A DNA stretch of 32,000 nt from Planctomycetales bacterium (GCA_022646745.1 CP060262.1:120001-152000); one strand, 5' to 3'. Positions 2,858 through 24,360 are shown, numbered from the stretch's first letter. Made by a program: numbers and translations. Notes: generated by a model not told the origin, from the letters alone.

Positions 2858-2895
2858 TCCAGCGTGGCAGGCAGTGAGTTGCCGGGCAGGCAAGG

Positions 2896-3354
2896 CTAAG
2901 AAGCGGAACTGCCCTGGCTCGCCAGGGTCTGCTCCAGGTTTGCCAGTAAGGTCTTCCAGCCGGCTGTGCTCTGCTCGGCGAATTCGACGGGGCAGTGCTC
3001 CTGCGTCAAGGACAGCTCGCAGGAACCATCCTTCCCGTCCGTGATCTGGATGCGCACGATGGAGCTGCCGAACTGCTCGAGGAACTTCGGCAGGTAGAAG
3101 CTGAAGGCCAGTTTGCGCGGTGCGTCGATTTCAAGGTACTCGCCACAGTGCTCCCAGTCCTCGCCGTCGCGGCGCTCCGTGATGCTGAAGCGTCCGCCGA
3201 CAAGCGCATCGATCCGCGGCGGCAGCATTTCCCCGTCAGGCGTGGCGAACAGCCACTGTACTGCCACTTCAGGGTCCAGCCAGGCATCGAACACGCGCTG
3301 GGCCGGCTGGCTGAAACTGTGCGAAACATGGATGCTGGTGTACTGCGTTGCCAT
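2896..3354 (-). CDS. SRPBCC / AHSA1 (Aha1-like START-fold) domain protein
   Basis: ORF 2896..3405(-). The start is set at ATG 3352-3354 with GGAAGGAG upstream. The pattern VSHSFSQPAQRVFDAWLDPE..WLF...GGRFSI......HCGEYLEIDAPRKLAFSF is typical of this family. Confidence 0.85.
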   Translation of the reverse strand: MATQYTSIHVSHSFSQPAQRVFDAWLDPEVAVQWLFATPDGEMLPPRIDALVGGRFSITERRDGEDWEHCGEYLEIDAPRKLAFSFYLPKFLEQFGSSIVRIQITDGKDGSCELSLTQEHCPVEFAEQSTAGWKTLLANLEQTLASQGSSAS

Positions 3355-3416
3355 CTGGCTGCTCCTTCCCGGTCCGTGGTCGTTCCGCATTATGTTCGCA
3401 TACATGCCGCCGCGGC

Positions 3417-3422
3417 TACAAT
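3417..3422 (+). promoter_or_regulatory. -10 hexamer TACAAT exactly 6 nt before ATG 3429 (leaderless arrangement)
   Basis: TACAAT-ccagcc-ATG, with no SD. Confidence 0.4.
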
Positions 3423-3428
3423 CCAGCC

Positions 3429-3908
3429 ATGCTTACTGAACTGACGGAAATCTGGCGCATCCATGAGTCGATAAACATGGAGCTGCTTGGCAACATCCCG
3501 GATGCCACATTCGGCGCGATCCCGCTGCTGAAGGATGGCAAGCCGGGCCGCGGGCGGGACATCGCGCGGGTGTTCGGCCACATCTATGACGTGCGCATGT
3601 CGGCGATGCGCAAGGCCGAGAAGGATGAAATGACTGAAGTGCCTGTGTTCGACAAGGGCTACTCACCGACGAGGTTGGAACTCGAGAAGGCACTGATTGA
3701 AAGCAGCGTGGCGGTCGTCGCCAGGCTGCGCAATGCGCTGGAAGCAGGGGACGTGATCCGCAAGCGCCAGCCCTCGGTCTGGCTGGCCTACCTGATTTCC
3801 CATGAGTCGCACCACCGTGGGCAGATCATGCTGGCATTGAAGCAGAACGGCTACACACTGAGCGACGAACAGAAGTGGGGTCCGTGGGAGCGCTGGTTCA
3901 AGGATTAG
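3429..3908 (+). CDS. DinB_2-type (DinB superfamily) protein
   Basis: ORF 3348..3908. The start is at ATG 3429 (MLTELTEIW). It has the C-terminal His motif LISHESHHRGQIMLALKQNGY. TACAAT lies exactly 6 nt upstream of the ATG and there is no SD. Confidence 0.85.
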   Translation: MLTELTEIWRIHESINMELLGNIPDATFGAIPLLKDGKPGRGRDIARVFGHIYDVRMSAMRKAEKDEMTEVPVFDKGYSPTRLELEKALIESSVAVVARLRNALEAGDVIRKRQPSVWLAYLISHESHHRGQIMLALKQNGYTLSDEQKWGPWERWFKD

Positions 3909-3943
3909 GTTGGAGGTTGCTGGGTTCAGGTTGCCGGTTGCAG
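3908..3943. repeat. Heptamer word tract GGTTGNN x5
   Basis: The tract reads ggttgga ggttgct gggttca ggttgcc ggttgca. It is the reverse complement of the CAACCTG-type words at 4268-4345, on the other side of the DUF4177 gene. Confidence 0.8.
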
Positions 3944-3961
3944 AAATGACTCTGGCGAACT

Positions 3962-3967
3962 TATTAT
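3962..3967 (+). promoter_or_regulatory. -10 hexamer TATTAT exactly 6 nt before ATG 3974 (leaderless arrangement)
   Basis: TATTAT-cactgc-ATG. TTGCAG lies 18 nt upstream (3938-3943). There is no SD. Confidence 0.45.
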
Positions 3968-3973
3968 CACTGC

Positions 3974-4210
3974 ATGGATGACAGCAACCTGATAGACCTG
4001 CTTACAAATCATGAGCCCGCAGGCTGGGAATACAAGACTGAACTGCGGATGACGCTTGGCGACCGCAACATCCAACAATACCTGAACAGAATGGACAGGC
4101 ATGGCTGGGAATTGGTTCAGGTCATCGGCAGGGAGTTCTGGGCTAGGGGATACTATCGTTTCTTCTTCAGGCGCAGAAGCAGGAAAGACCAAGCCACAAG
4201 CACGGAGTAG
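3974..4210 (+). CDS. DUF4177-like small protein
   Basis: 78-aa ORF. The pattern GWEYKTE...IQQYLNRMDRHGWELVQV matches the W-E-Y-K ... G-W-E-L-V signature of DUF4177. TATTAT lies 6 nt before the ATG. Confidence 0.7.
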   Translation: MDDSNLIDLLTNHEPAGWEYKTELRMTLGDRNIQQYLNRMDRHGWELVQVIGREFWARGYYRFFFRRRSRKDQATSTE

Positions 4211-4276
4211 GCCAACCGATTCGTTACTGAGATCTCATTTCTCATCACTCCTCCAAGCTCCCCACTCCAACCTGCC

Positions 4277-4345
4277 CCAGCAACCTGCAACCTGCACCCA
4301 GCAACCTGCAACCTGCACCCAGCAACCTGCAACCTGCACCCTGCA
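4277..4345. repeat. Tandem repeat, 21-nt unit (3 heptamers: CCAGCAA CCTGCAA CCTGCAC) x3.3
   Basis: Perfect copies lie at 4277-4297, 4298-4318 and 4319-4339, followed by a partial copy. Confidence 0.9.
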
Positions 4346-4358
4346 TTACACTCCCCCC

Positions 4359-4772
4359 ATGCCATCCGACCGTGACTACTCGCACCGCACACTGCCGCAG
4401 AAGCTCGGCATCAAATCCGGCATGCGTGTGTTAATTGCCAACGAACCAGCCCCGGACACGATCCCGCGGGCGGATATCCCTGAAGGTGTGAAACTGGCAA
4501 CGCGTGCCAGCGCTGAGGCGGATATGATGATCCTGTTCGCCCGCGATGTGCAGCAGCTCACAGAGAAGCTCGACCAGTACATCTCACTGCTGCCGAAGGA
4601 AGGCACGCTGTGGACCTGCTGGCCGAAGAAGGCCGCCAGGCTGGCAACGGACATCGACCGCGACGTGGTGTTCAAGTTGCTGCATCCGACTGGGCTGGTG
4701 GATGTGAAGGTCTGCAGCGTGAACGAAACCTGGTCCGCGCTGAAGTGGGTGTACCGGAAGGTGGATCGCTAA
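4359..4772 (+). CDS. DUF3052 family protein
   Basis: ORF 4101..4772. The upstream part reads through a 21-nt tandem repeat and is unlikely to be coding. From ATG 4359 the product reads TLPQKLGIKSGMRVLI...ADMMILFARD...EGTLWTCWPKKAARLATDIDRDVV...GLVDVKVCSVNETWSALKWVYR, which is the DUF3052 pattern. Confidence 0.8.
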   Translation: MPSDRDYSHRTLPQKLGIKSGMRVLIANEPAPDTIPRADIPEGVKLATRASAEADMMILFARDVQQLTEKLDQYISLLPKEGTLWTCWPKKAARLATDIDRDVVFKLLHPTGLVDVKVCSVNETWSALKWVYRKVDR

Positions 4773-4778
4773 GGGGCA

Positions 4779-4940
4779 GTATTGATAGTCTGGATAGTAT
4801 GAATAGTGGAATAAGTGAATTCCGTAGCGGCTGATACCAGCAGCCGGCTATGTATCATCAGTAAGGCCCCGGTTGTGCGCCTGACCCCTGTTGTTTCCAC
4901 TACAAAAACTATTCAAACTATCTGTACTGTTTCCACTCTT
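4779..4940. repeat. Composite palindromic intergenic element (ATAGT-type word arms)
   Basis: The left arm 4779-4818 (gatagtctggatagtatgaatagtggaataagtga) is complementary in its words to the right arm 4897-4940 (ccactacaaaaactattcaaactatc...). The core contains the hairpin TAGCGGCTG-ATACCAG-CAGCCGGCTA. Confidence 0.7.
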
Positions 4941-4944
4941 CCTA

Positions 4945-4953
4945 TGCTATACT
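4945..4953 (+). promoter_or_regulatory. Extended -10 element TGcTATACT upstream of DinB paralogue 1
   Basis: It is the same 9-mer as at 9376-9384, and the following 15 nt are also similar (GTTAAGTT shared). The -35 is weak. It lies 27 nt upstream of ATG 4980. Confidence 0.4.
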
Positions 4954-4979
4954 AATGTTAAGTTAGTCAGGAGGCGGAA

Positions 4980-5477
4980 ATGATTCGTAGCATCCAGGAC
5001 TTTGTGGCGGCATACACCGCCGAACGTGAGAAGACAATGCAGCTCTTGCAGGCTGTCACACAGGACAGCCTGTCCACCCGTGTCGGGACGGAGGGGCGCA
5101 CGCTGGGCTACATCGCCTGGCATATCGTGGCCACCATCCCGGAGATGATGAACAGGACCGGGCTGAAGCTTGCGGAGCTGGACGGTGCCGAGGCACCAGG
5201 CAGCATCGAGGAGATCCGCAGCGCCTATGCCGCGGCATCGCAGGAACTGCTGGACACGGTGGAGCGGAAGTGGGCCGATGGCGACCTCAGCGTCAGTGAC
5301 AACCTGTATGGTGAGGACTGGCCGCGCAGCCAGACACTGCTGGTGCTGCTCACGCATGAGATCCACCACCGGGCGCAGCTGACGGTGCTGATGCGCCAGG
5401 CCGGCCTGCGCGTTCCCGGGATCTACGGCCCGGCCCGTGAGGACTGGGCGGAGTACGGCCTGGAAACCCACCCCTGA
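4980..5477 (+). CDS. DinB family protein (tandem paralogue 1)
   Basis: 165-aa ORF with AGGAGG 6 nt upstream. It carries the motifs W..IAWHI and THEIHHRAQLTVLMRQAGLRVPGIYGP. Confidence 0.9.
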   Translation: MIRSIQDFVAAYTAEREKTMQLLQAVTQDSLSTRVGTEGRTLGYIAWHIVATIPEMMNRTGLKLAELDGAEAPGSIEEIRSAYAAASQELLDTVERKWADGDLSVSDNLYGEDWPRSQTLLVLLTHEIHHRAQLTVLMRQAGLRVPGIYGPAREDWAEYGLETHP

Positions 5478-5601
5478 TTTTCCTGCCGCACCGGTAATCC
5501 AACGCAATTCACCATCCGGTGCGGTTAGACTGGCTTTGGGGAATGCACATCCATGCGGCCGGAAAGCGGCCGGATATCAACACTTTTCAGGAGAGATGGA
5601 A

Positions 5602-6105
5602 ATGTACAGCAACATGCAGGAATTCGTTGAGGGTTACGGCTGGGAGTCCGGCGTCACCGCCTCACTGCTTGACAACCTCACACAGGAAAGCCTCAGCGTG
5701 AAGAAGGCTGACGGGCACAACACGCTTGGCGAACTGGCCTACCACGTCGCCACTTCCCCGGCGATGATGATGCGCGAGATCAAGTGGGACATGCCCGAGC
5801 GCGGCTGGGCCCCGACAGGCGAGGTCAACCTCGAGGAGCTGCGCGCCAATTACCGCGCGGACGTCGAGGCGATCAAGGCCAAGGCCGCCACGCTGAGCGA
5901 GGATGAGCTCAACGAAGTGCACCATGTATTCGGCATGATGGACTGGAAGGCGAAGCAGATGTTCGGCGCGCTGGTCTGCCATGAGATCCACCACCGTGGG
6001 CAGCTTTCCGTGCTGATGCGCCAGGCCGGCCTGGTCGTGCCGAGTATCTACGGCCCGAACTACGAGGAGACCCAGGAGTACCTGAAGCAGATGCAGCAGG
6101 GCTAG
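5602..6105 (+). CDS. DinB family protein (tandem paralogue 2)
   Basis: ORF 5437..6105. The start is set at ATG 5602 (AGGAG at 5589-5593), giving MYSNMQEFVEGYGWE, which is colinear with the N-termini of the two neighbours. It carries CHEIHHRGQLSVLMRQAGLVVPSIYGP. Confidence 0.9.
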   Translation: MYSNMQEFVEGYGWESGVTASLLDNLTQESLSVKKADGHNTLGELAYHVATSPAMMMREIKWDMPERGWAPTGEVNLEELRANYRADVEAIKAKAATLSEDELNEVHHVFGMMDWKAKQMFGALVCHEIHHRGQLSVLMRQAGLVVPSIYGPNYEETQEYLKQMQQG

Positions 6106-6476
6106 GAGGCCAGGCTGTAAGCCTGGCGAGCAATGAAGAATGAGTAAGGAGCAATGAGGACGGAGCAGCGTTGCGAAGTCATGCAAGCTGCATGACGAAG
6201 CTGCGCATGTGCGGGATGCGGTCTTAAGCAATGAGCAATGAAGAGTGAGCAATGAGCCAGGCTGTCAGCGAGGCTAACTCGACCTGGGCTGAACTCATTG
6301 CTCCCCCATCCAGCAATCCACACCATGCGAAGCAGCGCTTCGCGACCCACCGACTAGCGGCGGCCACCCGGCCGCCGTTTTCATTTACCCCGATTGATTG
6401 ATACTGCTTACCCGGATACACTCTACAGATTGCGGCGGGGCAACCAAAACATGCCGCACCAGGAGTAAACGGGACC

Positions 6477-6983
6477 ATGTTCACCAACGCACAGCAGTTC
6501 ATCGGCGAATACACCTACGAAAGCGGCATCACCCGCAGCCTGTTTGCCAACCTGACCGACGCCACGCTCGGTCAGGCCCAGGCGGAAGGCCTGTACAACC
6601 TCGGGCAGATCGCCTGGCATATCAGCTCCTCACGCTGCTACCTGTTCGGCCAGACCGGCTTCGACATGCCGGACCAGGGCCACGGCTTCCCGGAGAACAT
6701 GACGGCCGACATGATCCGCCAGAACTACGACATGCTGCTGGAGCGCGTGCTGAGCCAGGCCGCGACCAAGAGCGATGACGACCTGAACGTGGTCTACCGC
6801 TTCTTTGACAAGATGGATGTCAGCCTCGGCCAGATGATGCGGATGGTGATCTCGCATGAGGTGCACCATCGCGGCCAGCTGTCCGTGCTGATGCGCCAGG
6901 CCGGCCTCGGCATCCCGGGCATCTACGGCCCGAACGCTGAGGACACCAAGATCATGATGGAGCAGATGGCGCAGCAGGGCTAG
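6477..6983 (+). CDS. DinB family protein (tandem paralogue 3)
   Basis: 168-aa ORF with AGGAG upstream. It begins MFTNAQQFIGEYTYE and carries SHEVHHRGQLSVLMRQAGLGIPGIYGP. Confidence 0.9.
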   Translation: MFTNAQQFIGEYTYESGITRSLFANLTDATLGQAQAEGLYNLGQIAWHISSSRCYLFGQTGFDMPDQGHGFPENMTADMIRQNYDMLLERVLSQAATKSDDDLNVVYRFFDKMDVSLGQMMRMVISHEVHHRGQLSVLMRQAGLGIPGIYGPNAEDTKIMMEQMAQQG

Positions 6984-6990
6984 GCCCTGC

Positions 6991-7166
6991 GGGATGAGGA
7001 ACGAGGGATGGGGGATGAGCATTCCAGTAATGTGATTTGAATTCTGCACAATGAGCCCGGATGGCAATGGTGGCCCGCCGTTCACGGCGGGAACCATTGC
7101 GTGATCAGGGACGAGGAATGAGAGTTCGCATCCCCCATCCCCCATCCCCCATCCCCCATCCCTCAT
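6991..7166. repeat. Composite palindromic intergenic element (GGGATGR arm / ATCCCCC x4-5 arm)
   Basis: The left arm 6991-7020 reads gggatgaggaacgagggatgggggatgagc. The right arm 7128-7166 reads gca(tccccca)x4 tccctcat. The core has the nested hairpin GCAATGG(7064-7070)..CCCGCCG-TTCA-CGGCGGG..CCATTGC(7094-7100). Confidence 0.8.
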
Positions 7167-7231
7167 AGCTCCCCCAGCCCGTTTTCTTTTCTGGCAACGC
7201 TTCCGATGATCTCCCTGTCGGGAGGTGAGGA

Positions 7232-8293
7232 ATGCGTCTGTTCGCGCTGCTGGTGGTGCTGGCCACGCCTGTCGTGCTGGCGGCTTGCCGCGATTCCGGG
7301 ACGGAAGGCAATGACCAGTCGCTGGCTGAAGTCCAGCCAGCCGCAGTGCAGGATGACACGCCAGAACCAGCTGACACCGCCAGTCCTGCGGAACCCCTGC
7401 CTGACCACCCCCACCAGGCAGACCGGGTTTCCGATGCCGGCTCCACACTTTTCCCCAATGCCGTCATGCTGGAAATGCCATCCATGGATGGATATCATGG
7501 CTACCAGCACAACTGCCGTTGCCACTTCTACCGTCCCGAGGTATTCGACCAGGATGAAAACAACGTCCCCGCCAAAGAGTATCTGAGCCTTGCGGATCTG
7601 CAGCTTGCGGACCAGGAGGAAGTCATTTACATTGACCCACTCCTTGAGATTCATTCTTCAAGAGAATGGGAGAACAGATTCACCGTCGTCTGCTGGAAGG
7701 AATGGCATCTGGATCCGAACATTGGTGGCAAGCCTTTTCCCAAGCTGAGTTACGACAGCTGGATTTCAGTGTTTGATGAAAACGGACAACTGGTTGGCAG
7801 GACTGACAGCCTTGACAGGGTGGAGCGGATGGTGGAATGGCGTCCATCCAGCTCCGACCAGATGACGATATTGCTGGTGCAGGAGTTCCTGGGAGATCAG
7901 TACTTCTTCAACATTGAAGCGGATGGCAGTCTGGAATTACAACTCGAAGTTGGTATGGGCAGGGAAAACAGCTTCAACTTTCTGGCGTGCGGATCGGCAG
8001 TGCCCGGCGGTGAATTTGGAGAGGAGTGCTTCTCAATCATCCTGCCTGCTGGAGGGTCTGTTTCCACTGTCAACCATCAGGGCAACTTCATATACCTGCA
8101 TGACTGCCGTATGCCGGACGGGCGATCAGCAGCTGATGTGGACACCGGCTACTTCATCATCCGTTTTGGCAACGATCGCGTGTTCCCCTTCAGCTATGTG
8201 GAGGACTTTGACCTGAGCCGCTTCTGGTCAGTGCGTGATGAGATTCCGGCGGACTCCGGGCTGATTATCGCTGGCAATGTAGGAGGTGACTGA
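7232..8293 (+). CDS. Lipoprotein of unknown function (tandem paralogue A)
   Basis: 353-aa ORF with GGGAGGTGAGG upstream. MRLFALLVVLATPVVLAAC is a signal peptide plus lipobox. It shares blocks with the next gene (FTVVC, S.I.VFD..G.L, DCR.PDG, GY.I.RFGN..V.PFSY). Confidence 0.8.
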   Translation: MRLFALLVVLATPVVLAACRDSGTEGNDQSLAEVQPAAVQDDTPEPADTASPAEPLPDHPHQADRVSDAGSTLFPNAVMLEMPSMDGYHGYQHNCRCHFYRPEVFDQDENNVPAKEYLSLADLQLADQEEVIYIDPLLEIHSSREWENRFTVVCWKEWHLDPNIGGKPFPKLSYDSWISVFDENGQLVGRTDSLDRVERMVEWRPSSSDQMTILLVQEFLGDQYFFNIEADGSLELQLEVGMGRENSFNFLACGSAVPGGEFGEECFSIILPAGGSVSTVNHQGNFIYLHDCRMPDGRSAADVDTGYFIIRFGNDRVFPFSYVEDFDLSRFWSVRDEIPADSGLIIAGNVGGD

Positions 8294-9268
8294 GTGATGC
8301 CGTTCCTGCTCCTGCTGCTTGCCTGCGTTCTGACACTGGCTTCCTGCCGGCAGGCAGCTGAACCAGCGGATGAAGTGAAAGCAGCACAGGACCCGTTGCC
8401 TGTCGCAGACCAAGCGGGGGAAATCTCGCAGCAAGCGCAGTTCCTGTATGGCAATGCACGCTCCAGCCTGTTCCCGGATGCCCTGCTGCTGGACATGGTG
8501 CCGCCAGATGAACTGCGCATTCCTGACCAAAAGGCAATGTACGTCGTGCGTCCTGAGGAAGAAATACCTGAGGGCCTGCAATTCAATGAACTCGCTGCAC
8601 TGCAACGTGCCGTTGATGCGGATGATTACGTCATTGAGGCGCGATCGCCGATTACCGTGGATACGGATACCGGGTACCGGGATTTCACTGTGGTCTGCTA
8701 TGCCGAGAATTACCTGGTTGAGCTGAGCTGGGGCGAGAAGTACCGCAAAGTAGCCTACTCCAGTCAGATTGCCGTGTTTGACGATCAAGGCAAGCTGACA
8801 GACCAGGCAGGCTGTGACAGGCTGCAGGGCATGGTACTGGAAGGCAAAATGCTGCACATCACCGCATTCAGTCCGGAGCACCAGTGGCTGAATATCACTT
8901 CTGAGGGAAAGCTACAGACTGAGGTCTCCATCTTCTTCGGTCCCGGCTGGGATAACCTGCAAAGCAAGGAAAGCCTGTACGAAACTGAGCTTCATACGGA
9001 AACCTGCCGTTACATCGTGATCCCGGTGCAGTGCGGACACAACCTCGAAATCCACTACCGCGGGGAGTACCTCTTCAACCAGGACTGCCGCACACCTGAT
9101 GGACTTGCCCCCGAGGATCTGAAGGAAGGCTACATGATCTATCGCTTCGGCAACGAGCATGTCTGGCCCTTCAGCTATGCGCGGGAACTGGACGCGCTGG
9201 CTGTGCTGTCCAGCGGCGATGAAATCCCCGGTGGATCAGGGCTGATCAACCTGGGCGGGCTGGACTGA
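8294..9268 (+). CDS. Lipoprotein of unknown function (tandem paralogue B)
   Basis: 324-aa ORF. It starts at GTG 8294 or ATG 8297, directly after the TGA of the upstream gene, with AGGAGG at 8281-8286. LLLLLACVLTLASC is a lipobox. It is colinear with 7232..8293. Confidence 0.8.
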   Translation: MMPFLLLLLACVLTLASCRQAAEPADEVKAAQDPLPVADQAGEISQQAQFLYGNARSSLFPDALLLDMVPPDELRIPDQKAMYVVRPEEEIPEGLQFNELAALQRAVDADDYVIEARSPITVDTDTGYRDFTVVCYAENYLVELSWGEKYRKVAYSSQIAVFDDQGKLTDQAGCDRLQGMVLEGKMLHITAFSPEHQWLNITSEGKLQTEVSIFFGPGWDNLQSKESLYETELHTETCRYIVIPVQCGHNLEIHYRGEYLFNQDCRTPDGLAPEDLKEGYMIYRFGNEHVWPFSYARELDALAVLSSGDEIPGGSGLINLGGLD

Positions 9269-9348
9269 CCACTGACTACTGACCACTGCCCACTACTGAT
9301 CCCTGGTCCCTGGTCCCCGGTCCCTGATCCATGATCCCCGATCCCTGG
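9269..9348. repeat. Heptamer word tracts (ACTGACY then CCCTGGT/CCCTGAT series)
   Basis: The tract reads ccactgactactgaccactgcccactactgat, then ccctggt ccctggt ccccggt ccctgat ccatgat ccccgat ccctgg in 7-nt register. It starts right at the stop codon of 8294..9268. Confidence 0.8.
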
Positions 9349-9356
9349 ATTTCCCC

Positions 9357-9384
9357 TTGACATCCGTCTAGATAGTGCTATACT
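9357..9384 (+). promoter_or_regulatory. Near-consensus sigma70 promoter (TTGACA-N16-TGcTATACT) with no ORF behind it
   Basis: TTGACA at 9357-9362, a 16-nt spacer ending in an extended -10 TG (9376-9377), and TATACT at 9379-9384. The next plausible CDS on this strand is more than 2 kb away. Confidence 0.6.
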
Positions 9385-9390
9385 TTAGTT

Positions 9391-9716
9391 AAGTTCATCC
9401 GACGCTGTAGAGGAAGAGCCGCCGCGAATTCCCATGGGGGACTCGCGGCGGGCTTCAATCTGAGCTAGAATGAAATCAGGCCGCGATTGCTTGTGGGGCA
9501 GCCCTCCAAGGCAGGGGGCGCAACCGGCGGGTCAGGGGCAAACCCCTGTCCGTGCCAGCATTGGCGGCTGTGGGAAACAGGACGAGGAAGTCCCGTCGCA
9601 AGCGGGAAGGAAGGCTCCAAGGCAGGAAGCCTGGACTGGGACCCTTGAAAATTCATACTGCCGGCCATCCCGGATTTATCCGGTTCCTTGCCAGATGGCC
9701 GGCTTTGCCTTTTCTA
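9391..9716 (+). ncRNA. Candidate structured non-coding RNA of unknown family (~325 nt)
   Basis: It starts about 7 nt after the -10 at 9379-9384. By hand folding it contains GCCGCCGCGA...TCGCGGCGG(G)C (about 9420-9455), CAGGGG-CAAA-CCCCTG, CCCG(U)C-GCAA-GCGGG, and two hairpins that both display CCAAGGCAGG. It ends with stem CCGGCCATC (9661-9669) / GATGGCCGG (9694-9702) followed by CTTTGCCTTTTC. There is no credible ORF or SD. Confidence 0.3.
9661..9716 (+). terminator. Terminator-like stem-loop with T-rich tail
   Basis: A 9-bp outer stem (9661-9669 / 9694-9702) encloses the hairpin CCGGAT-TT-ATCCGG. It is followed by CTTTGCCTTTTCT. The T-run is interrupted, so this is weak. Confidence 0.3.
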
Positions 9717-9834
9717 CCTGCCGCCTCGTGCAAGCACTCGGCGGTCTGCGAACCGCAGCGAAGCATAGCTTCACTGCTCTTGCCCGCAACATCCATATCT
9801 CCTGCTCATGCGAGCACTCGGCGGGCTGGCGCTG

Positions 9835-10627
9835 CGTTTTCCATCCACCATCCCATTGTGCCTCACGCCTAAGGCGTGATTGCGCACCTCCGATCTGCCT
9901 TTTGCCTTCTGCCTTCTGCCCACCGACCACTGACCACTGACCACTGAAGGCTGTGTCGCCATTCCTTCAGGCAAGGCCGGAGGCCGCGCAGCAGCGCGAG
10001 GTACGAGCGCTGAAATGCAGACAGGCGTAAAGGCGCCACAGCGAAGATCAGGCGACAGCATGTCGCTGCTAGTTACTCGTGTTCGCAGAATAGTGTTGCC
10101 AGAATGAATTCCGGCCTCCCACAAACGGATGGCAAATGCCATCCTGGGCAAGGCACGCAGGCCTTGCCCTACGTTTTCCATCCACCATCCCATTGTGCCT
10201 CACGCCTAAGGCGTGATTGCGCACCTCCGATCTGCCTTTTGCCTTTTGCCTTCTGCCTTCTGCCCACCGACCACTGAAGGCTGTGAAGCCATTCCTTCAG
10301 GCAAGGCCGGAGGCCGCGCAGCAGCGCGAGGTACGAGCGCTGAAATGCAGACAGGCGTAAAGGCGCCACAGCGAAGATCAGGCGACAGCATGTCGCCGCT
10401 AATTGCTCGTGTTCTTAGATTAGGCGTTAACTGTTCAGTGTTGCCAGAATGAATTCCGGCCTCCCACAAACGGATGGCAAATGCCATCCTGGGCAAGGCA
10501 CGCAGGCCTTGCCCTACGTTTTCCGTCCACCATCCCATTGTGCGCAAACGAGTTGCGCACCTCCGATCTGCCTTTTGCCTTCTGCCCACCTACCACCGAC
10601 CACTGACCACTGACCACTGAAGGCTGT
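9835..10627. repeat. Tandem repeat, unit 337/345 nt, ~2.3 copies
   Basis: Unit starts (CGTTTTCCATCCACCATCCC) are at 9835, 10172 and 10517. Copies 1 and 2 are near-identical except for word-tract copy number, a 15-nt indel and a few substitutions. Copy 3 is truncated after the heptamer tract. Confidence 0.9.
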
Positions 10628-10651
10628 TGTCAGACTCTCGTCTGACCTCCG
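10625..10651. repeat. 27-nt repeat TGTTGTCAGACTCTCGTCTGACCTCCG with 7-bp hairpin (copy 1)
   Basis: Identical to 18795-18821. The hairpin is GTCAGAC-TCTC-GTCTGAC. It lies 3' of the minus-strand gene ending at 10661. Confidence 0.85.
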
Positions 10652-10660
10652 GCCTCCTGC

Positions 10661-11497
10661 CTACTGCCCGCTGCCTTCCTGCCTCTGGTCGATCCGGTCC
10701 CGCAGGCGTTCGCGCGGACGCTGCCTGCCCTGGCCCGGCGGCGGGCCATCACCCTGCCCCATCCCGGGGCCTTCCTCGCCGTTGCGCCGGCCCGGGCCAC
10801 CGCCGGGTCCGCCCTCGCCCATCCCCGGGCGGAAATCCGGGAACATCGGGTTGTCACTGACGCGCTGGAAATGCACCTCGTCAATCTCGATCACGCGCGG
10901 CCCATCCTCGGCGGTGGTGCCCTGCTTCGTGTCGATGTAGCCGATCAGCACGCTTTCCAGCTGGTCGACGTCCAGCTGGCCATTCTCATCCTCACTGTCA
11001 TCGGAAAGCGTCATCAACTCCAGCGGGAATTCGTAATGCGTCCATTCCCGCTCCAGCCGTTCAGGAAAAACCGTGTAAGAGCTGCCGTCGCGCTCCATCA
11101 CACCGACCACCACCTGGCCGTCATAGCTGGCGCGCATGTCCATCGCCAGCGCATTCGCGTCCGGCGGGCCGGGCCTCAGCATCAGGCCGAGCAGGTCGAT
11201 CGGCGCAGTCTCGCGGTCCGGTGTCCATTCCAGCCAGCCCTCCTGCCCGTCATCCATCAGCTCGGTGCGGGCCTTGCCGCTGATTGCGACCAGCGGGTCA
11301 TGCCCGTCGAAGCGGGCCACCGGCGGCGCTTCGATCCCGTCCGCCTGCATGCGCTGCTTCAGCTCGGAGTATCTGATCTGCCAGCTGGTGAACATCTGCG
11401 CCAGGCCCTGCTGCTTATCGCCGGCATCAACCACCGCCCCTGTCACGAGCAGGCCGTAAAGCAACATCAGCCAGGCAATTCCCTTCCACATTTGCAT
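10661..11497 (-). CDS. Secreted hypothetical protein with Gly/Pro-rich, basic C-terminal tail
   Basis: ORF 10661..11542(-). The likely start is ATG 11495-11497 (MQMWKGIAWLMLLYGLLVTGAVV, a signal peptide) with GGGAGCG upstream. I cannot name a family. The beta-sandwich-like central part is only an impression. Confidence 0.7.
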   Translation of the reverse strand: MQMWKGIAWLMLLYGLLVTGAVVDAGDKQQGLAQMFTSWQIRYSELKQRMQADGIEAPPVARFDGHDPLVAISGKARTELMDDGQEGWLEWTPDRETAPIDLLGLMLRPGPPDANALAMDMRASYDGQVVVGVMERDGSSYTVFPERLEREWTHYEFPLELMTLSDDSEDENGQLDVDQLESVLIGYIDTKQGTTAEDGPRVIEIDEVHFQRVSDNPMFPDFRPGMGEGGPGGGPGRRNGEEGPGMGQGDGPPPGQGRQRPRERLRDRIDQRQEGSGQ

Positions 11498-11587
11498 TCG
11501 CTCCCTGCAACTTGGAGTAGCGCAGCGCGTACTGAGTTGCAAAACCTATAATAGTTCCATACCGGGCCGCATGCCCGGCAGGCTGAT

Positions 11588-12907
11588 ATGGACACCAGCA
11601 ATCCAGATAACGGCAGCATCCGCATCCAGCCGGCGACGGGGCCGATCCGCGGCAGCTATGACCCGCCCGGCGACCGAAGCATCACGCACCGCGCGCTGAT
11701 CCTCGGCTCGCTCACGGATGAGGACAGCGAGGTGTGCGGCTCACTCGAATGCGAGGACACCGTCTGCACCCGCCGCGTGCTGGCCCAGCTCGGGCAGACC
11801 TTCACCAGCAGCGAGGAGGAGGACTGTGTCACGATCAGCCTCGGCGGCCTGCAGGCGCCGAGTGTGCCGCTGGACTGCGGCCGCTCCTTCACGACGCTGA
11901 AGCTGATGCTCGGCCTGCTGGCCACGCAGGACTTCGACAGCGTGCTGACCGGCTCACCCGAGCTGCTGCAGCGCCGGGTGACGCACCTCGTCGAGCCATT
12001 GCGTGCAATGGGTGCCGAGATCAGCTGCGAGGGCATCGGCGACAGTGCGCCGCTGCGCATCAGCGGCCGCAAGCTGAAGGCCGGTAAGGTGGAGATCGCC
12101 GTGCGCGATGCCGAGCTGAAGAGCACGCTGCTGCTGGCCAGCCCCTACATGCAGGGCCAGCTGCGCATCGTGGAGAAGGCCCCGAGCCGCGACCACAGCG
12201 AGCGCCTGATGAAACACATGGGGATCGCCTTCGGCCGTGACAGCGGGGCGATCACGCTGGAATGCGGCCAGCTGCCGAAGGCGCGGCGCATCAAGATCGC
12301 CGGTGACATGTCCTCCGCCGCGCCATTCATTGCGGCGACGGTGCTGATCCCCGGCAGTGAACTGACGATCAACCAGGTCGGCTTCAACCCGGGCCGCTGC
12401 GGGATGGTGAAGGTGCTGTCCCGCGTGGAGGACTGCGTGGAGCGCACCAAGGACTGGCAGCTCGGCAGCGAACCGGTGACCAGCCTGCATGTACGGCACT
12501 GTGCGGAAATGCCGGCCTTCAACATCGCACCGAACTTAAGCCCGAGCATGGCTGACGAGCTGCCGCTGCTGGCCCTGCTGGCAACGCAGGCCACGGGGAC
12601 GAGCTACCTGCGCGGCATCAACCGGCTGGCGACGCGCATGCCGGACCGCTTCCTGCTGACGGCGCAGATCCTGCGCAGCTTCGGCGCGGACATCGAGCTG
12701 GAGGAGGACGGCTTCACGATCCACGGCCCGACCCAGCTGCATGGCGGGCCGGTGCAGTGCGCCGGGGACCACCGGCTGGTGATGATGGCAACGGTGGCCG
12801 CGCTGATCGCCAATGGCGAAAGCACGCTGTATGGCGCTGACTCAATTCGCCACAGCTACCCGGGATTCTTCACGGACCTCAATGAGTTGTTGGTTGTCAG
12901 TGCTTAG
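11588..12907 (+). CDS. aroA: 3-phosphoshikimate 1-carboxyvinyltransferase (EPSP synthase) homologue, divergent in signature motifs
   Basis: 439-aa ORF. It has the family blocks PGDRSITHRALILGSL, SRDHSERLM, GDMSSAAPFIAA and GDHRLVMMATVAAL. Several signature residues are non-canonical (see findings). Confidence 0.85.
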   Translation: MDTSNPDNGSIRIQPATGPIRGSYDPPGDRSITHRALILGSLTDEDSEVCGSLECEDTVCTRRVLAQLGQTFTSSEEEDCVTISLGGLQAPSVPLDCGRSFTTLKLMLGLLATQDFDSVLTGSPELLQRRVTHLVEPLRAMGAEISCEGIGDSAPLRISGRKLKAGKVEIAVRDAELKSTLLLASPYMQGQLRIVEKAPSRDHSERLMKHMGIAFGRDSGAITLECGQLPKARRIKIAGDMSSAAPFIAATVLIPGSELTINQVGFNPGRCGMVKVLSRVEDCVERTKDWQLGSEPVTSLHVRHCAEMPAFNIAPNLSPSMADELPLLALLATQATGTSYLRGINRLATRMPDRFLLTAQILRSFGADIELEEDGFTIHGPTQLHGGPVQCAGDHRLVMMATVAALIANGESTLYGADSIRHSYPGFFTDLNELLVVSA

Positions 12908-12959
12908 TACTGAGTAGCGGCGCACGCTTCGTGTGACTGGGAGAGCATGCAGCGAAGCT

Positions 12960-13085
12960 ATGAGTAATGATGAGTAAGCAATTAGCCCGGCAATGATCAT
13001 CTTTCTCCGCGTCTCCGCGACTCCGCGTTGACAAGACCGTCGCCTCATTTGCACATATCAACCCGAGCACATGCGAGCCGCGCTG
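12960..13085. repeat. 126-nt composite module (copy 1), direct repeat of 14990-15115
   Basis: Gap-free hand alignment to 14990-15115 gives about 96/126 identities. This includes CGCGTTGACAA, GGCAAT and a 15-nt identical block GAGCACATGCGAGCC. Confidence 0.75.
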
Positions 13086-13143
13086 TCACGCGTGGAGCCT
13101 CGTGCTCGCCAGTCTGGTTTTCTTCAACGCGGAGTCGCGGAGA
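13012..13143. repeat. Perfect 19-nt inverted repeat (TCTCCGCGACTCCGCGTTG / CAACGCGGAGTCGCGGAGA) with 94-nt spacer
   Basis: 13012-13030 and 13125-13143 are exact reverse complements. The arms are made of CTCCGCG-type words. Confidence 0.85.
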
Positions 13144-13163
13144 TTGAAGAGAGGCGCGGAGCG
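13101..13163. repeat. Dispersed module CGTGCTCG..TGGTTTTCTT + variable words + GATTGAAGAGAGGCGC.GAG
   Basis: Other copies lie at 14916-14975 (same strand) and, first half only and inverted, at 22626-22666. The word tract inside differs between copies (CGCGGAG vs GCGCTGAG). Confidence 0.7.
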
Positions 13164-13319
13164 AATCGAGCGCATTGCCAAGCGCGTCTGCCATGCGTAC
13201 ATCACGGCATTTCCTCTCTGGCGCAGTAAGACTGCGCCGCTACGGCCTCTTTGGGAATTTCTTACCATGAGTCATGTCGCGTTTCAGCGGTGAGGGCGCT
13301 GCTGCTACTGACCACTGTT

Positions 13320-13407
13320 GTCCGGCTGCTGGAAGCAGCCGCTACTGACGTCTGACCACCGACCACTGACCACTGATGTCCGGCTGCTGGAAGCAGCCGC
13401 TACTGAC
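13320..13407. repeat. 30-nt repeat GTCCGGCTGCTGGAAGCAGCCGCTACTGAC x2 (58-nt period)
   Basis: Exact copies lie at 13320-13349 and 13378-13407, separated by TGACCAC-type heptamers. A degenerate third copy is at 15153-15182. It contains the hairpin GGCTGC-TGGAA-GCAGCC. Confidence 0.85.
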
Positions 13408-13583
13408 AACTTCTGCCACTTCTCGCTGACTTCCAACAAGCGGATGGTCGCAAGGCAATCCTGGCAGGGCACGGTGGCCCTGCCCTACTGACTATTGGTC
13501 CACTGTTAACAATCACTTCCGCCGCGGTTAAATGGCGCGAAATCCATCCTGACAACTTCCCTTTGAAGTTATATTCCCTGCAG

Positions 13584-14801
13584 ATGGATACCAGTGTGAC
13601 AAACGTGGTTGCCGAGTTCGACGAGGACGTGTTCGTCCCGGTCGAGCGGCTCAGTGCCGGCCTGGTCGTTGACAGCGACCTGTTCGCCGACAACCAGAAG
13701 CTGATCAGCAAGGGCACCGTACTCAGCCAGTCGATCATCAGCAACCTGACGAGCCGCGGCATCGAGCAGCTCAAGGTGCGCAGGGGCTCCAGCCTGGCAC
13801 GGCTCGGCATCATGCCCGAGAGCGCCGAGGACCGCTTCGCCGCGCTGCTGGTTGACACCGGCCGGATCTACGAGAAGCACGACCTGTCGATGGTGATCCC
13901 GCAGGAGAAGCTGGAAAGCGCCAGCCACCAGATCGAGACATTCTTCTGCGACCTCGAGCTCGGCCAGAGCGTGGACCTGACAAAGATGCGCGGCACGGTG
14001 GACGGCCTGATCCGAGAGTTCACCAAGAACCCGAACGGCGCCGTCAAGCTGCTCGACCTGGAGCACTTCGACCGCTACACCTACCGCCACTCGATCAACG
14101 TCGGCCTGCTGTTCCTGCTGAACGTGGCGGACTGGGTTGACGACGAGGACGAACTGGCCGAGATGGTCTACGGCGCGGTGATGCATGACATCGGCAAGAG
14201 CCGCGTGGACCTCTCGATCCTCAACAAGCCGGGCCCGCTGGACCGCGAGGAATGGGAGATCATGAAGATGCATCCGGTCTGGTCCAGTGAGCTGCTGGAG
14301 GACACGGCGATCTCCGACACCGGCATGCGCATCGCCCGCGCGCACCACGAGAAGCTGGACGGCAGCGGCTACCCGGACGGGCGCAACGCGAGCCAGATTG
14401 ACAAGTTCGTCAGGCTGTCAACGATCTGTGACGTGTATGACGCGATCACCACCAAGCGCAGCTACAAGAACAAGATGAACTTCGCCAAGGCGATTGAGAT
14501 CATCATCCAGGGATGCGGCCCGCAGTTCGACCCGAAGATTGCCAACATGTTCATCCGCAAGGTCGGGCAGTACCCGATCGGCACCTTCGTCAGGCTCAGC
14601 GACGGTCGCGTGGGCGTCGTCACTTCCGTGAACGAGGCCGCCATCACGCGCCCCGTGGTCAGCATCGTGCTGGACCAGCAGCTCAAGGAGACGGACTCCC
14701 CGGAGGAGCTGGACCTGTCCGAGCTGCCGGGCATCCGCATCGTCGGCGTGGTGGCCGGACGTACTGAGGAAACCACGGACCGCCCGCGCGCCAATTCATA
14801 G
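13584..14801 (+). CDS. HD-GYP domain phosphodiesterase (c-di-GMP type)
   Basis: ORF 13563..14801 (TTG). The first ATG is at 13584. It carries YTYRHSINVG, HDIGKSRV, REEWEIMKMHP and HHEKLDGSGYPDG. Confidence 0.9.
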   Translation: MDTSVTNVVAEFDEDVFVPVERLSAGLVVDSDLFADNQKLISKGTVLSQSIISNLTSRGIEQLKVRRGSSLARLGIMPESAEDRFAALLVDTGRIYEKHDLSMVIPQEKLESASHQIETFFCDLELGQSVDLTKMRGTVDGLIREFTKNPNGAVKLLDLEHFDRYTYRHSINVGLLFLLNVADWVDDEDELAEMVYGAVMHDIGKSRVDLSILNKPGPLDREEWEIMKMHPVWSSELLEDTAISDTGMRIARAHHEKLDGSGYPDGRNASQIDKFVRLSTICDVYDAITTKRSYKNKMNFAKAIEIIIQGCGPQFDPKIANMFIRKVGQYPIGTFVRLSDGRVGVVTSVNEAAITRPVVSIVLDQQLKETDSPEELDLSELPGIRIVGVVAGRTEETTDRPRANS

Positions 14802-14989
14802 CAGTCAGTGGCCAGTTGTCAGTGGTCAGTTTGCGGGAGCTGCGGAGCAAGTCGCACAACTGTGATGCCGCGCAGCAATGAGCAATGAAGAGCCGCGCAG
14901 TCGCACGGGCAGCATCGTGCTCGTCTGCATGGTTTTTTTGGCGCAGAGGCGCTGAGATTGAAGAGAGGCGCTGAGAATTCATTAAAGCA

Positions 14990-15115
14990 ATGAGCGATGA
15001 TGAATGAGCAATGAGCCTGGCAATCTTCATCTTCCCACGCGGCTTTGCGCCTTCGCGTTGACAAAACCATCGCAGCCTTAGCTCGAATGAGTACGAGCAC
15101 ATGCGAGCCACGCTG
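14990..15115. repeat. 126-nt composite module (copy 2), direct repeat of 12960-13085
   Basis: See 12960-13085. The two copies bracket the HD-GYP gene in the same orientation. Confidence 0.75.
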
Positions 15116-15227
15116 CTACACCCTTAACCCGGCACTAACAACTGACAACTTCTTCCGGCTGCTGGAAGCATCCGCTACTGAAGTCTGACCACTGACCACT
15201 GTTGCCAGCGGCGGGGCGCCGCTGCTA

Positions 15228-15638
15228 CTACGGAGTAACCGCCGTTGCCAGTTGCAGCATCGAGCTGGCCTGGCGCAGCTGGTAAGCCTGCTCATCCTGT
15301 TCCACGGTGCGCAGCATGCGCAGTGTGCCCAGCAGTGACCTGATCTCCGCCGGCTTCATCACCGTGGCCAGCATCTCGCTGGTGCGCTGCCTGAGCAGCG
15401 CGAACAGCATCTGCAGGCTGAACAGGCGGCCAATGCGCAGCAGGCCGCGGATGTGCTCCCGGCGCTCGGGGTTCTCCTTCAGCAGCTTCTCGGCCTCGGC
15501 ACGCTGCATGCCGCCCTTCGCCAGCCATTCGTCATCGATGCCGCCATTGGCCTCGATGCTGTACACCAGCAGCCACTCCAGCGGCTTGCGGCTTTCCAGG
15601 TCATCCCAGTTGAGCGGACCTTCCTTTACGACTTGCAT
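15228..15638 (-). CDS. Hypothetical protein (136 aa)
   Basis: ORF with AGGAGAG 5 nt upstream and TAATAT further upstream on the minus strand. The composition is protein-like. I recognise no family. Confidence 0.6.
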   Translation of the reverse strand: MQVVKEGPLNWDDLESRKPLEWLLVYSIEANGGIDDEWLAKGGMQRAEAEKLLKENPERREHIRGLLRIGRLFSLQMLFALLRQRTSEMLATVMKPAEIRSLLGTLRMLRTVEQDEQAYQLRQASSMLQLATAVTP

Positions 15639-15728
15639 GAATCTCTCCTGTGATATTACGATACAAATGTGTACCTGAGTCTGTATGCAGTGTCAAGGAA
15701 TGTGAATGTTAATTTATCAATCAGGCAA

Positions 15729-15837
15729 CAGAAACAGATTGAGAATCAGGAGATTGTGGGAGTTGCGATCGCTCTAATACTAGGCGCGCCTGTACTTCCT
15801 CTTCCTGGTTCTAAACCTGTTTCTCATTCTGCTTCTG
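15729..15837. repeat. 21-nt imperfect inverted repeat (CAGAAACAGATTGAGAATCAG / CTGTTTCTCATTCTGCTTCTG), 67-nt spacer
   Basis: 18 of 21 positions are complementary. It lies in the divergent promoter region between 15228..15638(-) and 15999..17882(+). Confidence 0.7.
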
Positions 15838-15998
15838 CTTCTGACTCTTCCCCTAACACCCGTTAAGCCCAATCCCACACAGGATTCGCAAAATGCACAT
15901 ACTTATTAAGAATGCATCCCCGCCGGCGATTATTCTCTTACCGGTCGGCGTGGCGATTCCTTCGCTGCGCAAGGGGTAAAGGACCGGACAGAGAGGTT

Positions 15999-17882: not shown

Positions 17883-17897
17883 GCCGCGGGCCTGCGG

Positions 17898-17903: not shown

Positions 17904-17909
17904 CGATAC

Positions 17910-19932: not shown

Positions 19933-19938
19933 AGGGCC

Positions 19939-23367: not shown

Positions 23368-24360
23368 GTGACCGATTATACGCCGCCTCAGGCATTCTGT
23401 AAATACTGTGAAGGCCCGGATAAGCTTACCCGCCGCTTCCCGCGATATCATTTCCCTGTGAGCGATAGCAGTGCACCCACCAGGAACCGCCCCGGCTGGA
23501 TCCGCGTGCGCCGTCTCGACCTGGCCACCGAGGAGCAGGTCGGCACGACGCTGGGCGGACTGGCGACGGTCTGCCAGAGCGCGAACTGCCCCAACATCGG
23601 CGACTGCTGGGGCCGCGGAACGGCGACCTTCATGGTGATGGGCGACAAGTGCACCCGGGCCTGCCGCTTCTGCAATGTGGACTTCGGCAAGCCTGAACCC
23701 CTTAATCCGCATGAACCGGCGCAGCTGGCCCAGAGCGTCCGCGAATTGGGACTGAACTTCGCCGTAGTGACCTGCGTGGACCGCGATGACCTGACGGACA
23801 GCGGCTCACAGCACTGGGTGGACTGCATCGACGCCGTGCATGCCGTTGGCGAGGGCGTGAAGATCGAGGTGCTGACCGGAGACTTCAAGGGCAGCGAAGC
23901 TGACATCGCGCGCGTGGTGCGCAGTGCCCCGGAAGTGTTCGCCCACAATGTGGAGACCATCCCGCGCCTGCAGGGCCGCGTGCGCCACAAGGCGCGCTGG
24001 GAGACCAGCCTGCGTGTGCTGAAGCTTGCAAAGAAGATCGCGGCCGACGAGGGCATCCCGCTCGTCACCAAGAGCGGCATCATGCTCGGGCTGGGAGAGA
24101 GCTTCTTCGAGGTGCAGGAGGCGATGCACCTGCTGCTGGATGAAGGGGTGGAGATCCTCACCATCGGGCAGTACCTGAAGCCCTTCGACCGGCCGGACAA
24201 GCTGGCGGTGGAGCGCTTCGTGGAACCGCAGGAGTTCGAGCGCCTGCAGGAGTACGGCCTGTCCATCGGCTTCGCCGGGATTGCCAGCGGGCCGCTGGTG
24301 CGCAGCTCCTACCGGGCGGAGACGCTGTACGAACAGGCGATGGCGCGCAAGGCGGGCTGA
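23368..24360 (+). CDS. lipA: Lipoyl synthase
   Basis: It carries the motifs CQSANCPNIGDCWGRGTATFMVMGDKCTRACRFCNV (both LipA Cys clusters) and a radical-SAM core. The longest ORF starts at GTG 23368. An in-frame GTG at 23458 preceded by TATCAT-N6 is an alternative start. Confidence 0.93.
   Translation: MTDYTPPQAFCKYCEGPDKLTRRFPRYHFPVSDSSAPTRNRPGWIRVRRLDLATEEQVGTTLGGLATVCQSANCPNIGDCWGRGTATFMVMGDKCTRACRFCNVDFGKPEPLNPHEPAQLAQSVRELGLNFAVVTCVDRDDLTDSGSQHWVDCIDAVHAVGEGVKIEVLTGDFKGSEADIARVVRSAPEVFAHNVETIPRLQGRVRHKARWETSLRVLKLAKKIAADEGIPLVTKSGIMLGLGESFFEVQEAMHLLLDEGVEILTIGQYLKPFDRPDKLAVERFVEPQEFERLQEYGLSIGFAGIASGPLVRSSYRAETLYEQAMARKAG

Follow-up and report, generated by a model that had tools for sequence, protein, structure and literature searches.

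Among described bacterial RNAs, three groups come close to the element reported here. The CsrB/CsrC/RsmX-Y-Z RNAs are stand-alone transcripts with strong promoters, terminator ends, and dense GGA motifs in single strands and hairpin loops. The raiA motif, OLE, ROOL, and GOLLD RNAs are transcribed independently and have multi-domain folds in which the junctions are conserved, the peripheral stems covary, and some arms are optional. 6S RNA and the mycobacterial Ms1 combine abundance and a strong promoter with a protein-titrating logic. Large complex-folded RNAs have historically proved to be ribozymes, ribonucleoprotein cores, or global regulators, and, to our knowledge, complex-folded noncoding RNAs (ncRNAs) of at least 300 nucleotides (nt) with conserved junctions are rare. 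In this study, we analyzed a 32,000-nt stretch of Planctomycetales bacterium DNA (GCA_022646745.1 CP060262.1:120001-152000; hereafter, the window), in which positions 9357-9715 are predicted to be an RNA gene on the + strand. Judged from the sequence and its homologues, the RNA represents a new family of stand-alone, independently transcribed structured RNA within a known kind, the bacterial structured small RNA (sRNA) genes. We consider it highly probable that this is a real structured RNA gene. The best explanation overall, to which we assign a probability of roughly 45%, is a trans-acting, protein-binding regulatory or scaffold RNA whose expression is coupled to a DinB gene.

The new RNA resembles the CsrB/CsrC/RsmX-Y-Z group in its predicted stand-alone transcription, strong promoter, and terminator end, and in a dense GGA cluster that would be presented by single strands and by one hairpin loop (GGC-AGGAA-GCC). 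However, it matched none of the Csr/Rsm models of Rfam, and its GGA cluster occupies one of four domains, the rest being a complex fold with conserved junctions and not a string of similar hairpins. It likewise shares the general architecture and the independent transcription of the raiA motif, OLE, ROOL, and GOLLD, whereas it gave no match to their Rfam models and is known from one narrow clade only; it is also smaller than OLE, ROOL, and GOLLD and has no characteristic gene association besides the DinB cluster. Its presumed abundance, very strong predicted promoter, and possible protein-titrating logic recall 6S RNA and Ms1, and its size is near that of Ms1. Its predicted four domains in series differ, however, from a long, irregular rod whose central bubble resembles an open promoter, and the 6S and Ms1 models of Rfam did not match it.

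A preliminary description of this region had proposed that an orphan strong promoter drives a structured ncRNA of ~325 nt. This reading, still that of a predicted RNA, is supported by the homologues, by covariation, and by the lack of a conserved open reading frame (ORF). In a sigma-70 scan, TTGACA-N16-TGcTATACT at 9357-9384 (+) was the top match in positions 1-20000 with a hexamer score of 11/12 plus the TG, and thus held the rank of best sigma-70 promoter that had been given to it. Another site, 23403-23375 (-), ties with it on the hexamer score without the TG; this near-consensus sigma-70 sequence (TTTACA-17-TATAAT, 11/12) points away from a radical-SAM gene at 23368..24360. The -35 hexamer TTGACA (9357-9362) was unchanged in 8/8 homologues with a constant 16-nt spacing, and the extended -10 element TGcTATACT (9376-9384) was equally unchanged in all eight as TGCTAYACT. 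By its hexamers, spacer, TG, and conservation in orthologues, the site is a predicted extended -10 sigma-70 promoter. Gene calls also bore out the 1.39-kb gene-free interval that had been noted here, which extends between 8294..9268 (+) and the convergent gene 10661..11491 (-; alternative end 11542).

Relatives were reached through the adjacent aroA gene, which matched a metagenome-assembled genome (MAG) contig, 'bacterium isolate UBP7 HKST-UBA', and related MAGs; the compared loci are denoted here by L numbers. Saline activated sludge was the source of the HKST-UBA MAGs. BLASTN and nhmmer showed that the block 9332-9744 is conserved in L007 and L008 with 84-88% identity. The block spans ~25 nt upstream of the -35 hexamer to just past the terminator, and the DNA beyond the terminator is unconserved. 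Four further loci (L011, L015, L010, and L021) were recovered via contigs carrying homologues of the adjacent 276-aa protein, and L022 via homologues of the DinB gene. The homology search, one of the checks that the preliminary description had proposed, thus recovered the RNA from eight related lineages, in all of which its promoter and terminator are invariant; these eight distinct homologues all come from related UBP7 metagenome genomes. One contig, L009, was left out of the count as a frameshift-ridden duplicate. In every locus, a cluster of DinB-family genes precedes the RNA, and the 276-aa gene is convergent with it. Its identity to the window was 90, 76, 78, 72, 70, and 67%, which equals or exceeds that of the adjacent 276-aa gene (67-74%) and is close to that of aroA.

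The 331 nt downstream of the promoter gave a folding energy of -150 kcal/mol, with z = -3.0 on the + strand against dinucleotide shuffles. The opposite strand gave z = -4.0 against the same kind of shuffles; since this lies beyond the + strand value, folding energy alone does not choose the strand. The G-U pairs found in H1c, H3, H4, and H7 of the homologues would be C-A mismatches if read on the - strand, and the G-C to G-U changes in the H4 stem are compatible with the + strand only. The predicted promoter and the U-tract are both on the + strand as well.

We then examined the fold by covariation, another of the proposed checks, and several helices were found to covary. A covariance model (CM) was made on the RNA body, and the alignment obtained from it was used for paired-cell and shuffle statistics. 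The CM found hits of 148-279 bits in every lineage. In its alignment, 78% of the cells were paired versus 37-48% with slid partners, and 14 pairs showed double changes, a number reached by 5 of 500 shuffles. Because the MAFFT and CM alignments misalign length-variable hairpins (both misplaced the 3' strands of H7 in L015, L021, and L010), the helix table was tabulated by hand and checked with a script. In this table, H1c forms 9-14 pairs in all eight sequences, with six distinct stem sequences and six compensatory positions, and P2 forms 4-9 pairs in all eight, also with six distinct stem sequences and with two compensatory positions. H3 (5-10 pairs) has five distinct stem sequences and eight compensatory positions, and H9 (5-7 pairs) has four and two, respectively. 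H7 (5-8 pairs) has a different stem sequence in each of the eight homologues, six of its seven positions being compensatory. Taken together, the five helices of the hand-aligned table contain 24 positions with compensatory double changes and three non-pair cells.

The predicted transcript of ~320 nt (9391-9715, +) was placed with its start 7-8 nt past the -10 element and its end within the U-tract, in accordance with the conserved block and the CM hits. The model suggests four domains: a long hairpin; a junction domain in which one arm is dispensable; a three-way junction rich in GGA; and, at the 3' end, an invariant hairpin that would also serve as intrinsic terminator. Domain I (9394-9474) would be closed by a tentative P1 (UUCAU, 9394-9398, with AUGAA, 9470-9474), the register of which is not constant among the lineages (for example, CAUUC/GAAUG). 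It contains H1 (9404-9465), a long irregular hairpin whose upper stem, H1c, lies at 9417-9454; the stem GCCGCCGCGA/UCGCGGCG(G)GC, seen earlier by hand-folding, was present there. An invariant 17-mer, CAAUCUGAG(C/A)UAGAAUG (9456-9472), makes up the 3' side of the base of H1 together with the junction. The changes in the partner strand opposite this 17-mer, read directly from the sequences, all keep pairing (U-G to C-G and A-U to G-U). A long-range P1 pairing between the 5' end and GGACU was dropped, because it clashes with P5 and H9 and is impossible in L010.

Domain II (9477-9570) is closed by P2 (9477-9484 with 9564-9570), which forms a junction with H3 and H4. L021 lacks its variable arm (P2a/H3), and in L010 this arm has an unrelated sequence. 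H3 (9501-9519) is a covarying peripheral hairpin whose loop is not conserved (CAAGGCA, GUAAGGCAA, GGCA, GGCG, and AAAU across the homologues). H4 (9526-9556) has a nearly invariant inner stem, CAGGGG/CYCCUG, at 9533-9548 with a variable loop, where the previously drawn stem CAGGGG-CAAA-CCCCUG was also found.

Domain III (9578-9638) is GGA-rich, and P5 closes its three-way junction with H7 and H9. P5 pairs CAG (9578-9580) with CUG (9636-9638) and appears as CCAG/CUGG in most lineages and as GAUCGAG/CUCGAUC in L010. It is followed by the conserved junction string CGAGGAA (9583-9589; CGAAGAA in L015) and by the fully covarying H7 (9591-9607). H7 corresponds to the GCAA-tetraloop hairpin CCCGU(C)-GCAA-GCGGG of the preliminary description; the hairpin was present, whereas its GCAA loop was not conserved. 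Positions 9609-9635 hold the invariant GGAAGGCU and then H9, UCC-(A)-[A/U]GGC-AGGAA-GCC[U/A]-GGA, with its loop at 9624-9628. The closing pair of H9 is swapped from A-U to U-A in five lineages and the AGGAA loop is conserved. Two hairpins with different stems had also been thought to present CCAAGGCAGG. This string does occur twice in the window; however, the first copy is unconserved and the hairpins are window-specific, and for the second copy covariation favours a different hairpin, [A/U]GGC-AGGAA-GCC[U/A].

Domain IV (9660-9703) is the invariant hairpin GCCGGCCAUC-CCGGA-nnnA-UCCGG-[UUCCUUGCCA]-GAUGGCCGGC, with a calculated energy of -26.9 kcal/mol. It consists of a 10-bp stem (9660-9669/9694-9703), an inner 5-bp stem (9670-9674/9679-9683), and a 10-nt internal loop (9684-9693), and a U-rich tail, UUUGCCUUUUCU, follows at 9704-9715. 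The 9-bp closing stem reported before was therefore present and followed by UUUGCCUUUUCU, its true extent being 10 bp plus the inner stem. The 55-nt 3' hairpin was identical in 8/8 homologues save three loop bases. An interrupted 15-bp stem of this energy followed by UUU(U) in all homologues has the form of an intrinsic terminator and is predicted to act as one; the terminator scan overlooked it because its inner part is long.

Next, we considered whether the region could be read as coding or as the leader of a gene. The ORF 9470..9940 exists, but its frame is lost in the relatives through indels, with a stop after 14 codons in L011, and no conserved reading frame was found on either strand of the RNA across the homologues. 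The coding reading was rejected, since both the 9470 ORF and a minus-strand 'MAGSM...' ORF stem from conserved nucleotides and the frames differ between homologues. The invariant hairpin gives rise to the 'MAGSM' ORF as a by-product. This ORF also opens a called 165-aa gene in L011 (6855-7352, + in locus orientation), which runs on the opposite strand over the RNA in an unconserved frame and is probably spurious. None of the loci had a same-strand gene downstream of the RNA; the next gene was convergent throughout, and the RNA is therefore not a leader. A riboswitch or other cis-regulatory leader was rejected on the same ground.

The constant convergent arrangement leaves another cis-acting role to be weighed, that of a riboswitch-like sensor in which conditional read-through of the terminator would produce antisense RNA covering the convergent 276-aa gene, along with the region of the aroA promoter, or cause transcriptional interference. 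The complex fold immediately upstream of the terminator would suit such a sensor, as would the H9 loop AGGAA, which is complementary to UUCCU in the terminator internal loop. Synteny is expected among close relatives anyway, however, and the spacer to the convergent gene is variable in length (160-950 nt) and filled by unrelated repeats. The terminator is moreover the most conserved part of the RNA, whereas riboswitch expression platforms are normally the least conserved, and the 5' strand of the terminator showed no alternative pairing that could act as an anti-terminator. We consider this sensor quite improbable, and the RNA is probably trans-acting rather than cis-acting.

The RNA was then compared with known families. 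Rfam 15 (4227 models) at the gathering threshold gave no RNA-family match in the window and nine related loci, so that the Rfam scan proposed in the preliminary description did not connect the RNA with a known family. At E<=10, stretches of 157-351 nt taken from the window, L010, and L011 as three divergent homologues gave noise only, such as frameshift sites, snoRNAs, and miRNAs. ARAGORN found no tRNA or transfer-messenger RNA (tmRNA) in the window, BLASTN against plasmids and phages gave no match that would hint at an origin from a mobile element, and the invariant strings were not found in a full-text search of the literature. The assignment to a new family follows from these empty searches. 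The earlier statement that the segment is unlike tmRNA, RNase P, signal recognition particle (SRP) RNA, 6S RNA, or a riboswitch also agrees with the absence of an Rfam or ARAGORN match and of a same-strand downstream gene.

A highly divergent or rearranged housekeeping RNA of the candidate phylum (RNase P, SRP, 6S, or tmRNA) might nevertheless be missed by Rfam models, and the strong predicted promoter and a size in the right range would fit one. By eye, as a lead only, some strings resemble the CR-I and P5-P8 parts of RNase P and the 4.5S RNA of E. coli: presumably CGAGGAAGUCC is like CR-I, GGCUCCAAGGCAGGAAGCC like the P5-P8 region (E. coli GGCUCCAUAGGGCAGGGUGCC), and GGAAGGAAG..CCAAGGCAG like 4.5S RNA. 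All these likenesses were rejected. The short strings resemble CR-I/P8 and the 3' side of 4.5S helix 8/5, whereas their order and context do not fit. For RNase P, we take the P4 pseudoknot between the CR-I (GAGGAAAGUCC) and CR-V strands to be the criterion. The window contains a CR-I-like string that is unconserved, being degenerate in L015 (CGAAGAAACAC) and L010, and no CR-V-like strand was found to form P4 with it; the sole CCGGCUU belongs to the terminator stem, and the homologues do not maintain its pairing with the CR-I-like string. The RNase P models were silent both at the gathering threshold and, for the short stretches of the window, L010, and L011, at E<=10, and so were the SRP, 6S, and tmRNA models. 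SRP RNA (4.5S or large bacterial) was also rejected because there is no conserved AGCA or GNAR helix-8 motif and the loops of H7 and H4 vary freely, and 6S RNA because the covariation-supported helices define four separate domains and not a rod with a central bubble. For tmRNA, the lack of an ARAGORN match in the window and of a conserved ORF added to that of an Rfam match. Finally, an essential RNA would be expected throughout the phylum, whereas this one is absent from the syntenic site and the surrounding 21 kb in the deeper relative L024, where it could lie elsewhere. A divergent housekeeping RNA is accordingly very improbable.

The promoter of the RNA gene has a counterpart at a DinB gene. 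The 19/24 identity between the RNA promoter and leader and positions 4945-4968, which had been reported for DinB paralogue 1, was correct, and its core is an operator-like promoter-proximal module, CTATAC-N4-GTTAAG (consensus CTAYAC-N4-GTWWAG), at 9378-9393 that overlaps the -10 element and the start site. A twin, tG-CTATAC-N4-GTTAAG, lies at 4945-4962 (+), outside the RNA gene and upstream of the DinB paralogue 4980..5477. The tG-CTAYAC-N4-GTWWAG module was found in 8/8 RNA promoters and 7/7 DinB-1 promoters and at no other site in the loci, which gives two copies per region. The DinB-gene sites in the relatives are L007 2799, L008 1249, L010 3229 (-), L011 9106 (-), L022 707, L023 169, and L024 8669. 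In the RNA genes of L011, L021, and L022, the module is a perfect palindrome, CTATAC-N4-GTATAG (a 16-bp inverted repeat), and the DinB copies are imperfect palindromes (GTTAAG). From this conservation, the similarity of the two promoters appears to be a conserved promoter/operator module and not a chance repeat. The DinB copy is kept in L024, where the RNA is absent at the syntenic site, which suggests that one regulator serves both promoters or that the RNA promoter arose as a copy of the DinB promoter. Co-regulation of the RNA with DinB through an operator has, in our estimate, about an even chance against a common core-promoter feature.

LexA (SOS) boxes of the Gram-positive and cyanobacterial types are CGAACN4GTTCG and RGTACNNNDGTWCB, respectively (PMC3091678). 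The palindrome CTATAC-N4-GTATAG has the same ..AC-N4-GT.. geometry as these boxes and overlaps the -10 element and start site, and the module is common to the RNA gene and a gene of the 'damage-inducible' DinB family. However, it agrees with just 7/11 specified positions of the cyanobacterial consensus, and its DinB copies are imperfect palindromes.

According to the explanation that we prefer, the RNA would act in trans as a folded RNA, neither a leader nor an mRNA. It would bind a protein partner and sequester or scaffold it, following the logic of CsrB/RsmZ or 6S RNA. The platform for this partner may be formed by the conserved GGA motifs in loops and single strands of domain III (CGAGGAA, GGAAGGCU, and the loop AGGAA) together with the invariant 3' hairpin, and the output of the RNA would be tied to the regulator of the DinB gene, possibly a stress or SOS-type repressor. 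Domain III contains 5-8 GGA per ~75 nt against 1.5-1.9 expected, a 3-5 fold enrichment found in 8/8 sequences. CGAGGAA and GGAAGGCU, two strands of the junction, contain these motifs, and so does the H9 loop; the remaining domains have no GGA motif. No CsrA/RsmA-family protein is encoded in the window or the compared loci, and no RNA-related or regulator genes were found near the RNA gene. As the actual mechanism, a protein-binding sponge or scaffold is tentative, with a chance somewhat below even.

Several points weigh against this explanation. Motif density is the one argument for protein binding, and H9 is the only covariation-supported hairpin that presents a GGA in its loop. Simple protein sponging would also leave the invariance of the fully paired stems (H4 and the terminator) unexplained. 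With regard to the fold, the tool-made CM alignment yields weaker covariation figures than the hand-fitted table, which was fitted to the model and amounts to strong qualitative support and not to statistical proof; as the eight sequences represent ~5 independent lineages, the covariation cannot reach R-scape-type significance. Both ends of the transcript are predicted ones. In addition, a third promoter at 15659-15674 (-), upstream of the ORF 15228..15638 (-; a 136-aa protein), has TTGACA, a 17-nt spacer, and GTACACATTTGTATCG, and its counterpart in L007 is GTAAACATTTGTAACG, a looser form of the same -10/GTWW arrangement. This suggests that the module might be a lineage-specific core-promoter feature and not an operator.

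Conserved unpaired segments also raise the possibility of a base-pairing regulatory sRNA, in which the C/U-rich internal loop UUCCUUGCCA or the invariant 17-mer would pair with mRNAs, for example at AAGGAA-like ribosome-binding sites, and control their translation or stability. A stand-alone promoter-terminator unit is typical of sRNA genes, invariant single-stranded stretches are present, and UUCCUU is complementary to purine runs that resemble the Shine-Dalgarno sequence. When RNAduplex was applied to the 22 translation-initiation regions of the window, however, no complementarity above the shuffled background was observed. The seed that would pair is itself part of the terminator hairpin and is complementary to the AGGAA loop of H9 in the same RNA. 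With ~320 nt, conserved nucleotides at the junctions, and two junctions of several helices each, the RNA also goes far beyond the complexity of typical base-pairing sRNAs. We therefore regard this role as unlikely.

The same complementarity was kept at 5 nt in 7/8 sequences and at 4 nt in L010, and it bears on a further alternative, a self-assembling or catalytic large RNA like ROOL, GOLLD, OLE, or raiA, in which the AGGAA-UUCCU pairing and the invariant helices would mediate tertiary or intermolecular contacts. By analogy with known RNAs, conserved junctions, freely covarying peripheral stems (here H1c, H3, and H7), and a dispensable arm (H3/P2a, missing in L021) would mark RNAs built around a defined tertiary core, and invariant paired stems such as H4 and the terminator call for more than Watson-Crick pairing. 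On the other hand, 5 nt make a weak complementarity, and with one side invariant there is no room for covariation; 320 nt would also be a small size among such RNAs, and the RNA has a very narrow distribution. This alternative appears improbable. Rather unlikely, too, is an undescribed class of complex-folded RNA whose conserved core consists of the invariant 3' hairpin and, docked on it, the GGA-rich three-way junction. Such a core would itself carry out a biochemical task, be it catalysis, self-assembly, or the recognition of a ligand or protein, and the RNA would be co-induced with the DinB-family stress gene by a repressor on CTATAC-N4-GTATAG. If true, no RNA before this one would have been assigned to a damage or stress regulon in an uncultured candidate phylum; we know of no cultured member of UBP7 and of no described RNA biology in it.

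With the predicted promoter and ends, eight homologues, and a secondary-structure model available, the RNA can be synthesized, probed, and used as bait. The module common to the RNA and the DinB-family gene offers a testable handle on a regulon in these organisms. The narrow distribution of the RNA, which is missing at the syntenic site of the next relative, limits its general importance. In that relative, L024 (aroA 48% identical), the order is DinB-DinB-[convergent gene]-aroA with just 6 nt at the syntenic site, and since no copy was found within 21 kb of it, the gene appears specific to one clade. When metagenomes were scanned with CCGGTTCCTTGCCAGATGG, a 19-mer invariant among the homologues, three chance matches were the only result, all inside coding sequence; a scan of viral contigs with the same 19-mer gave no match.

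With regard to the surroundings, the RNA stands directly 3' of a DinB gene in L010, L011, and L022. In the window, the DinB cluster is separated from the RNA by two adjacent paralogous lipoprotein-like genes (7232-8293 and 8294-9268), which had no Pfam match; a single homologue occupies that position in each of L007 and L008, and L010, L011, and L022 have none. L016 and L022 are neighbouring contigs of one MAG, split in the repeat region. Two apparent RNA copies in MAG AC1.30 (L008 and L009) were rejected as paralogy, L009 being a second contig of the same locus. The L009 contig (JAWLAZ010000004.1, 1-17289) repeats the L008 locus with aroA, the DinB genes, and others in frameshifted pieces, and is probably an error-rich or chimeric assembly rather than a paralogous region.

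Downstream of the RNA, positions 9717-10660 contain a tandem array with a period of ~337 bp and ~2.4 copies, each unit of which has hairpins and terminator-like sites (10146-10169 and 10491-10514). The copy number of this array differs between the near-identical contigs L001 and L002, and pieces of it recur at L007 13273-13386 and L011 12221-12257, indicating dispersed intergenic repeat elements. A conserved 59-mer and the tandem repeat downstream were therefore excluded as parts of the RNA. Heptanucleotide microsatellites (ACTGACC, CTGATCC, TCTGCCT, and CTGACCA) at 9264-9347, 9894-9947, 10231-10264, 10567-10620, and 10646-10685 flank the RNA gene and each repeat unit, and related contigs contain them in further intergenic positions (L006 64-161 being one example). 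Elsewhere in the window, two very similar terminator-like palindromes, GGGATGGGGT...ACCCCATCCC followed by CTTCTTTTT, were observed at 24895-24919 (-) and 27135-27161 (-), and these may be copies of another repeat family.

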